A stretch of DNA of 64,000 nucleotides, taken from contig NZ_CP011125.1 in NCBI RefSeq assembly GCF_000737325.1, forward strand, positions 9,931,945 through 9,995,944, written 5' to 3'. The stretch comes from Sandaracinus amylolyticus. GTDB taxonomy: Bacteria; Myxococcota_A; Polyangia; Polyangiales; Sandaracinaceae. Positions 57,801 to 60,800 of the stretch are shown here, one piece after another. The number at the start of each line of letters is the position of its first letter. Position 1 is the first letter of the stretch. The notes beneath the pieces are model-generated. The model was not told where the DNA came from and did no database searches. It saw nothing but the letters and a program-made list of their open reading frames with translations. A program made the translations under genes and the position numbers.

Positions 57801-60800
57801 GGCGGCGAGTGCGAGAGCACGGGCTGCAACACGCCGTGCGGCGCGGGCCAGGTGTGCGCGGGCGGCGCGTGCGTCGACGATCCGTGCGGCTCGCTCGGCT
57901 GCGACACCGGCGAGGTGTGCGATCCGACGCGCGGCGAGTGCGTCGACGATCCGTGCCGCAACGTGACGTGCCCCGGCGAGGGCGAGATCTGCCGTCTCGG
58001 CGAGTGCTACGCGCCGAGCGACTTCGAGGTCGACGCGGGCACCGGCGGGATGGACGCGGGCACCGGCAGCGGTCCGCGCGAGGTGCTCGCGGCGGGCGGC
58101 GGCGGCATGTGCAGCGCGAGCGGCGCGGGCACCGGCGGCGCGAGCGGCGCGCTCGCGTGGATCGCGCTCGGCATCGTCGGGATCGTGATCGCGCGGCGTC
58201 GTCGCTCCAGTGCCAACGCTGGCACCGCCAGTGCCAACGCTGGCACCGCCAGTGCCAACGCTGGCACTGGCATCGCGCTCGTCGTCGCGCTCGTGCTCGG
58301 CGGCTGCGAGGTCGATCCCTACTGCGTCGCGAATTGCGACGGCGGCGCGGAGCTCGACGCGGGCCCGGGCGACGACGCGGGCACCGACGGCGGCACCGAC
58401 GGCGGCCGTGGTCGTCCCGACGGCTGCGTCGTCGGCGCGACCGAGGAGTGCAACGAGTCCGACGACGACTGCGACGGACTCGTCGACGAGGGCATCGACC
58501 TCACGAGCGACTCGCGGCACTGCGGCGACTGCTCGACGACGTGCGAGCGCACCGGCGCGCAGACCCAGTGCACCGAGGGCGCGTGCGAGCTGCTCGAGTG
58601 CTTCGACGGCTTCGTCGATCTCAATGGCGACATCGACGGTCCCTTCGCGGACACCGACGGCTGCGAGTACCGCTGCTTCTCGAGCAACGGCGGCGTCGAG
58701 GCCTGCGACACGATCGACAACGACTGCGACGGCGACGTCGACGAGACGTTCGACTTCCAGGGCGACGAGGCGAACTGCGGTCGCTGCGGCCAGGTCTGCA
58801 CGTTCTTCCGCGTGACCACCGCGACGTGCGACATGGGCACGTGCGAGTTCGATCCCGCGACCGACTGCGAGACCGGATACATCGATCAGAACGCCGTGCA
58901 GTTCGACGGCTGCGAGTTCGAGTGCACGCCGACCGGCGCCGAGGTCTGCGACGGCCTCGACAACGACTGCGACACCCGCACCGACGAGGGCTTCGGCCTC
59001 GAGACCGACCCGAACAACTGCGGTCGGTGCGGTCGCGTGTGCACGTTCCCGAACGCGACGCCGCGCTGCAACACCGGCGTCTGCGGGTTCGATCCGATGA
59101 CCGACTGCAACGCCGGCTTCAGCGATCGCGACGGCGTGCAGCTCAACGGGTGCGAGTACCCGTGCACGCCGACCAACGGCGGCGTCGAGATCTGCGACGG
59201 GCTCGACAACGACTGCAACGGTCGCGTCGACGGTCCGACCACCGACTCCGGCGCCTCGTGCAACCGCGCGCCGGGCGGCACCGCGACCGGCGTGTGCACG
59301 AGCACCGGCACGCTCACCTGCGTCGGCGCGACGCTGCGCTGCGTGGGCGCGCCCGAGCCGACGCGCGAGATCTGCGACGGGCTCGACAACGACTGCGACG
59401 GGAGCTCGGACGACTCGCCGGTCGACGTCGGTCGCGTCTGCGCGCCCGCGGTCGGCGCCTGCACCGCCGGCTTCTCGACCTGTGGCGGTGGCACGCTCGG
59501 CTGCGTGCGCGCGGTCGGTCCGACGCCCGAGATCTGCAACGGCCTCGACGACGACTGCGACGGAACGATCGACGACATGCCGACCGATCCCACGCTCGGC
59601 GACGCGTGCGGCACCGACACCGGCGAGTGCGTGCGCGGCGCGATCGCGTGCACCGACGGACGGCTCGTGTGCGCGGGCAGCGTCGGCGCGACGCTCGAGA
59701 CCTGCAACAACCGCGACGACGACTGCGACGGCATGACCGACGACGATCCGGTCGACGTCGGCGGCTCGTGCGGCTCGTCGGTCGGCGCGTGCGTGCCGGG
59801 CTCGCTCGTGTGCTCGAGCGGCTCGCTCGTGTGCTCGGGCGGTGCGTCGGCGAGCAGCGAGATCTGCGACAACCAGGACGACGACTGCGACGGCACCGTC
59901 GACGAGATGCTCTCGCAGAGCTGCTACACGGGCCCCGCGGGCACGAGCGGCGTCGGGCTCTGCCGCGGCGGCACGCGCGTGTGCGCGGCGGGCACGTTCG
60001 GCACGTGCGCGGGCCAGGTCGTGCCCGCGGGCGAGACCTGCACCAACACCGACGAGGACTGCGACGGCCGCATCGACGAGGGCGTGACGCGCGCTTGTTA
60101 CACCGGGCCCGCGGGCACGAACGGCGTGGGCCTCTGCCGCGGCGGCACCCAGGCGTGCACCGCGGGCGCGTTCGGCGGCGCGTGCACCGGACAGGTCACG
60201 CCGGCGACCAGCGAGAGCTGCGACTCGCTCGACGACGACTGCGACGGTCGCACCGACGAAGGCGCGGGCGGCGGTGCGCTCACGCGCAGCTGCTACACGG
60301 GCGCCGCGGGCACCGCCGGCGTCGGCACGTGCCGCGCGGGCACGCAGACCTGCCGCTTCGGTGCGTTCGAGGCCGCGTGCGCGGGCCAGATCGTGAACAC
60401 GCTCGATCGCTGCGGCGACACGCTCGACACCGACTGCGACGGACTGAACGACACGGCCGAGGGATGCCTCACCGCGGGCGGCGAGCTGCGCATCGACACC
60501 GGCGGCGGCGACGATCCCGGCGAGTTCCACTCGTTCGAGGTGCAGCTCGCGTCGGGCGGCGATCCCGTGGGCCGCAACGTCTACGCGGTCTGGGTGGACA
60601 AGCGCAACGGCGGGTCGACTGCCGACGTCTTCTTCTCGCGCTCGACGAACGGCGGCTCGACGTTCTCGGCGCCCGTCGATCTGACCGACTTCGCCACCAC
60701 GCGCGCGGTCGCGCCGCGGATCGCGGTGGGACGCGTGGGATCGAACGACGTCGTCTACGTCACGTTCCAGATCGTCGTCGACGGCGTGCGCAACGTGTAC

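Follow-up and report, generated by a model that had tools for sequence, protein, structure and literature searches.

The window analysed here, a stretch of 64,000 nucleotides from the Sandaracinus amylolyticus genome (contig NZ_CP011125.1, positions 9,931,945 to 9,995,944), contains a giant open reading frame (ORF) at 54852-61898 on the forward strand, stop codon included, which encodes a 'MopE-related protein' of 2,348 amino acids (aa). Its product is 100% identical to P0001, the S. amylolyticus 'MopE-related protein' from a 10.3-Mb contig. Near the middle of the chain lie two motifs of kinds otherwise expected at protein ends: a MYXO-CTERM-like sorting signal and, shortly after it, a lipoprotein-type signal peptide. 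We conclude that the giant ORF is a genuine, conserved single gene in which a cassette of two back-to-back sorting signals joins two exported proteins. Features described below lie on the forward strand unless stated otherwise, and are numbered by window position.

The ORF opens with a Sec signal peptide, MRPRRSRRVAPLLFIAALTASFIATDAHA (54852-54938), cut before TVVQVDGTIVP. Such an N-terminal signal on the same protein is one of the criteria for MYXO-CTERM proteins, and it is found in all full-length homologues, where it ends in A-x-A and is followed by a conserved TV(V/T)QVDGTI. The NCBI gene model (P0001) has 2,317 aa and begins MQVDG at a GTG 31 codons downstream, so that the Sec signal peptide is omitted (54852-54947). 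Because this model loses a signal peptide present in every homologue, ATG 54852 is likely the true start. A DUF4114 domain (Pfam PF13448; 55326-55595, residues 159-248; E=2e-09, 38.7 bits) falls inside a conserved N-terminal domain whose alignment, A2, has a mean column identity of 61%. Pfam places this domain and 8 MopE repeats upstream of the junction between the two signals, and 8 further MopE repeats and a BNR_2 (sialidase-like propeller) region (PF13088; 61269-61736; E=1.3e-09, 38.2 bits) downstream of it, in agreement with the second Cys-rich series and BNR propeller that the initial annotation had described after the lipobox. The MopE repeats (PF11617) score 97.7 and 116.7 bits, and the ORF stands above the gathering thresholds for PF11617, PF13448 and PF13088. 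The two halves resemble Cys-rich surface modules that bind Ca or act in adhesion, the head being formed by DUF4114 and the tail by the BNR propeller.

The first internal signal spans 58095-58205 (residues 1082-1118). It consists of GGGGMC (58095-58112, residues 1082-1087; the predicted lipidated Cys1087 is encoded at 58110-58112), a 12-aa spacer of Gly, Ser and Ala, SASGAGTGGASG, an uncharged, Pro-free hydrophobic transmembrane (TM) helix, ALAWIALGIVGIVIA (58149-58193, residues 1100-1114), and RRRR (58194-58205, residues 1115-1118). The Gly/Cys motif, hydrophobic helix and Arg cluster reported in mid-ORF are thus present as reported. They supply the Gly-rich motif with Cys and the uncharged, Pro-free TM helix followed by 2-5 Arg that characterize MYXO-CTERM; the extreme C-terminal location that also characterizes it is lacking, as 1,230 residues follow the Arg cluster. 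Scanned in all six frames for a Gly-Cys motif with a TM segment and a basic cluster, the whole window gave 58095-58205 as its only site, and the motif is therefore not a chance product of high-GC sequence. A twin-arginine (Tat) role of RRRR was rejected, because the S/T-R-R-x-F-L-K context is missing and the cargo has 78 cysteines.

Searching the whole halves of the protein against NCBIfam gave no sorting-domain match; matches arose only from short excised segments. With such segments, the internal motifs of homologues exceed the curated cutoffs, reaching 24.6 and 28.1 bits against TIGR03901 (cutoff 20) and 18.7-26 bits against TIGR03382 (cutoff 15.85). Among 41 homologous junctions, TIGR03901 was matched by 32 and TIGR03382 by 20 at E<=0.01. 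A further, recent NCBIfam model, NF058595 ('lipo-invert putative C-terminal anchoring domain'), gave sub-threshold matches over the TM-RRR-TM region in 3 of the 41 junctions, the best with E = 1e-4 and 18.8 bits (cutoff 37).

The Arg cluster is followed by a loop, SSANAGTASANAGTASANAGTG (residues 1119-1140), and then by the second signal (58272-58307), which comprises the h-region IALVVALVLGG (58272-58304, residues 1141-1151) and the lipobox L-G-G-C (58296-58307), with the predicted acylated Cys1152 at 58305-58307; the residues through the lipobox read IALVVALVLGGC(1152)EVDPYC. An uncharged h-region behind a basic n-region and ending in [LVI]-x-[GAS]-C, the hallmark of lipoprotein signals, is seen here as RRRR ... 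IALVVALV-L-G-G-C. The position that PROSITE PS51257 assigns to the Cys, within residues 15-35 of the precursor, does not apply to Cys1152, which is internal. The hydrophobic core of this second segment has only 9-11 residues, a usual length for the h-region of a signal peptide, though less than a stable TM helix would normally have. The predicted C-terminal product would start C-E-V-D-P-Y-C-V-A-N-C (58305-58337), corresponding to a family consensus of C-x-V-[DN]-[PED]-[YF]-C-[LIV]-x(1,2)-C.

The loop is largely made of a 21-bp tandem repeat with the palindromic unit CCAGTGCCAACGCTGGCACCG (58207-58269), encoding (SANAGTA)x3 as had been described; Tandem Repeats Finder reports 58207-58267, period 21, 2.9 copies and 100% matches. 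The unit occurs at this single location within the window, where the number expected elsewhere is 0. It is itself palindromic (GTGCCA-ACGC-TGGCAC). RNA from 58190-58285 folds with -54.5 kcal/mol (z = -4.0), a hairpin potential that may explain slippage or may affect local translation. The repeat is located in the predicted cytoplasmic loop, which doubles as an extension of the n-region of the second signal. None of the homologues has the SANAGTA repeat, and the length and sequence of the loop differ in every lineage; comparison of these sequences indicates that the repeat is a recent, in-frame, genome-specific expansion within a tolerant loop.

Homologues were sought in a collection of 5.8 billion proteins, with assemblies from NCBI, JGI, ENA and Logan. 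Full-length homologues have 2,290-2,385 aa and identities of 47-70%, and a wider class of ~1,850 aa has the identical DUF4114-MopE-BNR layout. Among the 120 homologues listed, ~100, with identities as low as ~31-35%, have an internal Cys-TM-basic cluster with a hydrophobic stretch and Cys after it, and in several of the remaining ~20 the module is visible by eye. The conserved module, found at the matching position, runs Gly-Cys, TM, Arg cluster, short loop, hydrophobic stretch, [G/A/S]-Cys. In an alignment of the 41 junctions (A1), three Cys are invariant, namely the upstream one, that of the lipobox and a third six residues further on, and the Gly-Gly before the first Cys (G9/G10) and three Arg are conserved in at least 90%. 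With the motif [VLI][ND][PDE][YF]C, located downstream, as an unbiased anchor, Cys stood at the lipobox position in 48/48 junctions and G, A or S at position -1 in 48/48. The PS51257 core pattern is passed by 78 of 91 junctions. From the upstream Cys to the first basic residue the median distance in homologous junctions is 24 aa, and from the first basic residue to the lipobox Cys it is 23 aa, spacings that agree with the 34-residue MYXO-CTERM model and with a lipoprotein signal peptide. The ORF is thus real and conserved, as are both of its internal signals, and selection keeps the signal-defining residues and not the loop.

These same comparisons bear on whether the junction is real. The initial annotation had allowed for an assembly collapse or frameshift in the repeat. 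A perfect tandem repeat exactly at the junction, with its strong hairpins, could raise the suspicion of an error in sequencing or assembly, or of a recent fusion that arose by accident through slippage. The uninterrupted ORF with its module nevertheless recurs in repeat-less homologues from many independent NCBI, JGI, ENA and Logan assemblies and in the DNA of 58 species-level genomes, and the repeat itself is 3 x 21 bp, in frame, in a loop of freely varying length. As far as the sequence data allow, this explanation is refuted.

The gene structure was followed at DNA level in a census of 80 loci, fetched with A2 from species-representative genomes and read directly. All 80 derive from Myxococcota metagenome-assembled genomes (MAGs; Sandaracinaceae, Polyangiales, Kofleriaceae, Haliangiales and Polyangiaceae). 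In 17 the structure is undecidable from contig ends or early stops. The question of the initial annotation, whether orthologues have one gene or two, has a divided answer: a single continuous ORF passes through the module in 58 of the 63 decidable loci, and five (L046, L048, L050, L071 and L075, from Polyangiaceae-type genomes) are split, with a stop 8-14 codons past the Arg cluster. Gene 1 of these pairs ends in a homologous MYXO-CTERM motif that is truly C-terminal. Its stop overlaps the start of gene 2 (TGATG, ATGA or GTGA), a purine-rich ribosome-binding site of GGAGG type lies 5' of that start, and gene 2 begins M-(A/V/S/N)-R..., runs through a hydrophobic stretch to [G/S]-C, and continues with (S/T)T(E/D)AFCF or QDQAYCF.

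Two further split pairs, both metagenomic, come from other branches of the MopE superfamily. In L005, the last residues of gene 1 are ...RRRRRAEVRS*, the overlap is GTGA, gene 2 starts VIRRLALVAMIAFASLAAAC followed by NVNDYCINC, and both products are homologous to the respective halves of the window protein. In L001, the TGA of a 3,127-aa MYXO-CTERM protein overlaps the ATG of a 2,663-aa lipoprotein that starts MRSTHRTLVLGLCCVVLLGSGC, followed by KLDPWW. Over all seven split loci the gene 1 stop falls 5-14 codons past the Arg cluster and overlaps the gene 2 start, which has a purine-rich GGAGG-type site before it. Gene 2 opens in each with a standard lipoprotein signal peptide, its Cys at residue 20-27, and with the motif C-x-x-[DE]-x-[FYW]. 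Both internal signals are thus homologous to true terminal signals in split relatives, and since split forms exist, covalent continuity across the loop is dispensable.

A neighbour-joining tree built on the N-terminal domain places the five census split loci in a single clade that has long internal branches and is nested among fused ones; the split is therefore an inherited and functional state, and not a sequencing error. The initial annotation had proposed to read a stop codon between the halves in orthologues as the mark of an artefact. This criterion fails: the stop is absent from close orthologues, and in the relatives that do have it, it forms part of a clean stop/start overlap that is inherited. 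When the tree, which is rough and has an insecure root, is rooted at its midpoint, the fused state looks ancestral for the family. The proposed fusion of a MYXO-CTERM protein and a lipoprotein is accordingly upheld in kind, as two-gene versions exist, and not as a recent or repeat-driven event, the fused state being old and dominant and the repeat genome-specific.

Some further loci were set aside. At L002/L011 (the P0023 locus; contig_6130, MAG MFD02416.bin.1.293) the orthologue is in pieces: a DUF4114 gene of 665 aa is separated by ~860 bp from a gene of 1,380 aa, whose start lies ~120 residues ahead of the Gly-Cys motif. The assembly here is from long reads, and the locus, probably frameshifted or a pseudogene, was not counted as a clean split. 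P0098, P0103 and P0202 have true C-terminal MYXO-CTERMs with no downstream lipoprotein partner seen, and were treated as stand-alone cases with no bearing on splitting; downstream lie, respectively, a 565-aa gene with no Pfam match, a PlsB-type acyltransferase and a protein without a signal peptide, the latter two unrelated.

The split relatives also raise the question whether the C-terminal half of the fused gene might be translated independently from an internal start, besides the full-length chain. An in-frame GTG at 58185 (V1112) stands just 5' of RRRR, and initiation there would yield M-I-A-R-R-R-R..., a product resembling a normal lipoprotein precursor. No Shine-Dalgarno-like sequence was found at a usable distance from this GTG, the only candidate being GGGA 3 nt upstream, whereas the split relatives have their purine-rich GGAGG-type site before the start. 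GTG codons are moreover expected by chance in Val-rich helices, and the N-terminal half would still be read through into the C-terminal half. We regard such a start as very improbable.

The layout extends beyond the MopE-related family. A profile search with A1 over 1.84 billion representative proteins gave 88 matches at E<=1e-3. Some are MopE proteins, and others show an internal MYXO-CTERM followed by a lipobox in unrelated architectures: Ig domains then Kelch propellers (P0162), SpoIID then Amidase_2 (P0180), and trypsin then an unknown region (P0183). In other proteins the internal MYXO-CTERM is followed by an A-x-A-type signal peptide, for example in P0151, with TSP3 repeats and an outer-membrane beta-barrel. 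Additional unrelated Myxococcota proteins with an internal MYXO-CTERM and a second signal peptide include P0126, P0132, P0135 and others. This distribution suggests a general mode of fusion for pairs of exported proteins, and the MYXO-CTERM plus lipobox cassette appears to be modular, joining unrelated protein pairs elsewhere in Myxococcota.

Of the three readings offered by the initial annotation (fusion of two genes, polyprotein and assembly collapse), a polyprotein cut at the internal signals is in our judgement the best supported, and we consider it probable, from comparison of sequences, that the gene encodes a polyprotein matured into two separately lipid-anchored products. How the chain crosses the membrane, the two cleavages, the two lipidations and where the products end up we infer as follows. 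The N-terminal signal peptide would initiate Sec export of the N-terminal half (mature residues 30-1087), and the MYXO-CTERM-like helix (1100-1114) would act as a stop-transfer segment that keeps RRRR cytoplasmic. The hydrophobic stretch 1141-1151 would then serve as an internal N-in/C-out signal at which export of the C-terminal half restarts. Lgt would place diacylglyceryl on the lipobox Cys1152 and LspA would cleave between Gly1151 and Cys1152, freeing a lipoprotein of 1,197 aa with MopE repeats and the BNR propeller. The N-terminal half would thereby become a normal MYXO-CTERM substrate, lipidated at Cys1087 and cleaved by the myxosortase MrtX, and the 64-residue hairpin (1088-1151), SANAGTA repeat included, would be thrown away. 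The outcome would be two lipid-anchored envelope or surface proteins in a 1:1 ratio from one gene. On a fuller proposal, about which we are evenly poised between belief and doubt, the cassette would be a self-contained, excisable membrane hairpin of 50-70 aa, cut on both sides by the unrelated membrane-embedded proteases MrtX and LspA, with both new termini lipidated, possibly by the same Lgt, to give two lipid-anchored surface proteins at an obligatory 1:1 ratio.

MrtX cleaves MYXO-CTERM, as shown for TraA, and Lgt is the leading candidate for the enzyme that lipidates MYXO-CTERM (PMC11980579). S. amylolyticus is among 16 proteomes curated with MYXO-CTERM signals (Haft preprint, 10.1101/2023.06.07.544157). 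A Pfam scan of the neighbouring ORFs (43.6-54.5 kb and 61.8-63.9 kb) found no myxosortase/CPBP-family, lgt/lspA or type II secretion genes; these ORFs encode aldose epimerase, YbjN, MgsA and penicillin amidase.

Several observations weigh against maturation of this kind. The window motif aligns with positions 1-33 of the 34 in TIGR03901 at 13.6-15.6 bits, below the cutoff of 20, and gave no match to TIGR03382; in this detail the motif is weaker than the initial annotation implied, and the equivalent motif of homologues passes the cutoffs. Cys1152 lies 38 residues past the first Arg, outside the 15-35 range of PROSITE, because the SANAGTA repeat lengthens the loop. Among homologues, lipobox position -3 is often Ala, Ser or Gly and not Leu, the second hydrophobic stretch reaches TM-helix length (at least 19 aa) in about half, and position -2 is acidic (...EGC or ...DGC), hence non-canonical, in one Sandaracinaceae/Polyangiaceae subclade (L056, L059, L063, L064 and L073, fused; L071 and L075, split), which might use a different processing route. 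The presence of mrtX in the S. amylolyticus genome is taken from the Haft preprint, and cleavage and lipidation in the MopE-related family are predictions from sequence.

Some of these points would be accommodated by a helical hairpin that is never cut, that is, a permanent two-pass inner-membrane anchor with RRRR and loop in the cytoplasm and both Cys-rich halves in the periplasm, joined as one protein of ~240 kDa; the conserved Cys and Gly would then have another role, for example in packing or disulfide bonding. Two hydrophobic segments around a basic loop are the classic hairpin topology, and the length of the second segment in half of the homologues, the sub-cutoff window score and the non-canonical -2 residues of some lineages would all be as expected. 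A plain anchor, however, requires neither an invariant Gly-rich Cys motif nor [G/A/S]-Cys, yet those positions are the most conserved; the second core of the window protein is too brief to suit it well; and a five-species clade and two other loci separate the halves exactly in the loop, each half with its own signal. Cysteine parity is a further point against it: with the signal cysteines set aside, the window protein has 106 Cys upstream and 78 downstream, and the number of Cys beyond that of the lipobox is even in 73 of 91 homologues and the number before the motif region in 70 of 91, which fits two unpaired signal cysteines, with the caveat, again on the unfavourable side for processing, that these statistics ignore the relatedness of the sequences. 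On balance we hold an uncleaved hairpin to be unlikely.

It could also be that one signal only is used: LspA might free the C-terminal lipoprotein while the N-terminal half stays in the inner membrane, held by its TM helix and a cytoplasmic tail, or the myxosortase might cut alone. Three features make the MYXO-CTERM-like motif of the window atypical: Met separates Gly from Cys, the spacer is long at 12 aa, and the score is below the cutoff. In M. xanthus the defect of an mrtX deletion is not absolute (PMC11980579). Against such partial processing, the Gly-Cys motif is invariant family-wide and above HMM (hidden Markov model) cutoffs in most homologues, and the N-terminal half of split relatives ends in an ordinary C-terminal MYXO-CTERM. 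This makes it decidedly doubtful, and maturation at both signals remains our preferred reading.

Other features around the gene can be mentioned briefly. An antisense 'shadow' ORF of 2,505 aa (54759-62276, reverse strand) covers the whole giant gene, and long ORFs occur in other frames as well, e.g. 56594-61624 on the forward strand; such shadow ORFs are typical of very high GC and are no evidence of genes. The intergenic region directly 5' of the giant ORF (54238-54713) holds repeat units of 85-88 bp, ~3 copies in one orientation (54238-54482) and ~2 in the opposite one (54515-54695), with 80-90% complementarity between the arms. Together they make a large imperfect palindrome, with its centre near 54500, that may consist of regulatory repeats or be a small mobile element.

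If maturation at both signals is correct, the gene specifies a natural polyprotein matured wholly by the envelope sorting machinery, one gene giving one C-terminally and one N-terminally lipid-anchored protein. The cassette would offer a direct test of a question posed in PMC11980579, namely which enzyme lipidates the MYXO-CTERM Cys and whether it is Lgt, as that Cys and a classical Lgt substrate Cys are predicted to lie on the same face of one hairpin. S. amylolyticus can be cultivated, which makes the prediction testable. Annotation rules and signal predictors check protein termini only, so that both signals were missed and the protein is annotated merely as 'MopE-related protein'. Fused and split forms differ by a change on the single-nucleotide scale at a 1-4-nt stop/start overlap, a clean example of fusion and fission in a disposable cytoplasmic loop.

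Compared with the MYXO-CTERM/MrtX system (TIGR03901 / TIGR03382), the window protein shares the Gly-rich Cys motif, uncharged TM helix, Arg cluster, N-terminal signal peptide and Myxococcota host; it differs in that its signal is not C-terminal, scores below the cutoff and has a processing predicted from sequence. Compared with the lipoprotein pathway (Lgt, LspA, Lnt; PS51257), it shares the basic n-region, short h-region, L-G-G-C, invariant Cys and small -1 residue; it differs in that the signal sits ~1,100 residues into the chain, with an n-region that also belongs to the sorting signal before it. Since its signals stand in the wrong position for both classes, the protein does not formally belong to the family of C-terminal MYXO-CTERM proteins or to the class of N-terminal lipoprotein signals. 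The midcut-by-XrtH proteins (NF033207) provide a precedent for an exosortase-type 'C-terminal' signal placed mid-protein, although they are small and belong to another sorting system (PEP-CTERM / exosortase H). A search with NF033207 gave no match in the window and 22.2 bits for one homologue (cutoff 45), and the window protein is not a member.

Internal MYXO-CTERM motifs are rare within ORFs, and the nearest described case is MXAN_5598 of Myxococcus xanthus, in which an adhesin, an internal MYXO-CTERM and an outer-membrane (OM) barrel/OmpA part follow one another; it is interpreted as a probable fusion, equivalent to an overlapping gene pair and comparable to TraA/TraB, and its N-terminal part is proposed to be processed (PMC11980579). 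The window protein has the same sequence of an exported N-terminal region, an internal MYXO-CTERM and a second exportable protein, and it has two-gene counterparts with overlapping ORFs. In MXAN_5598, however, the C-terminal part is an outer-membrane beta-barrel/OmpA, the arrangement is a rare one-off and no lipobox is mentioned, whereas the C-terminal part of the window protein opens with a lipoprotein signal peptide, and its arrangement is conserved and probably ancestral in a large family, with later fission exactly at the loop. The split loci likewise recall TraA/TraB (PMC11980579, PMC3325183), a MYXO-CTERM protein with an overlapping partner gene, here with overlaps of 1 or 4 nt; the protein families are different, TraB being of OmpA type and not a lipoprotein with MopE repeats. 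Our search of the searchable literature found no description of an internal lipobox, of an internal lipoprotein signal, or of a polyprotein in connection with signal peptidase II. What sets the S. amylolyticus protein and its relatives apart from all of these systems, and appears to be undescribed, is that an internal MYXO-CTERM is paired directly with a lipoprotein signal peptide, that this pairing prevails throughout a large family, and that fission has occurred in it exactly in the loop.

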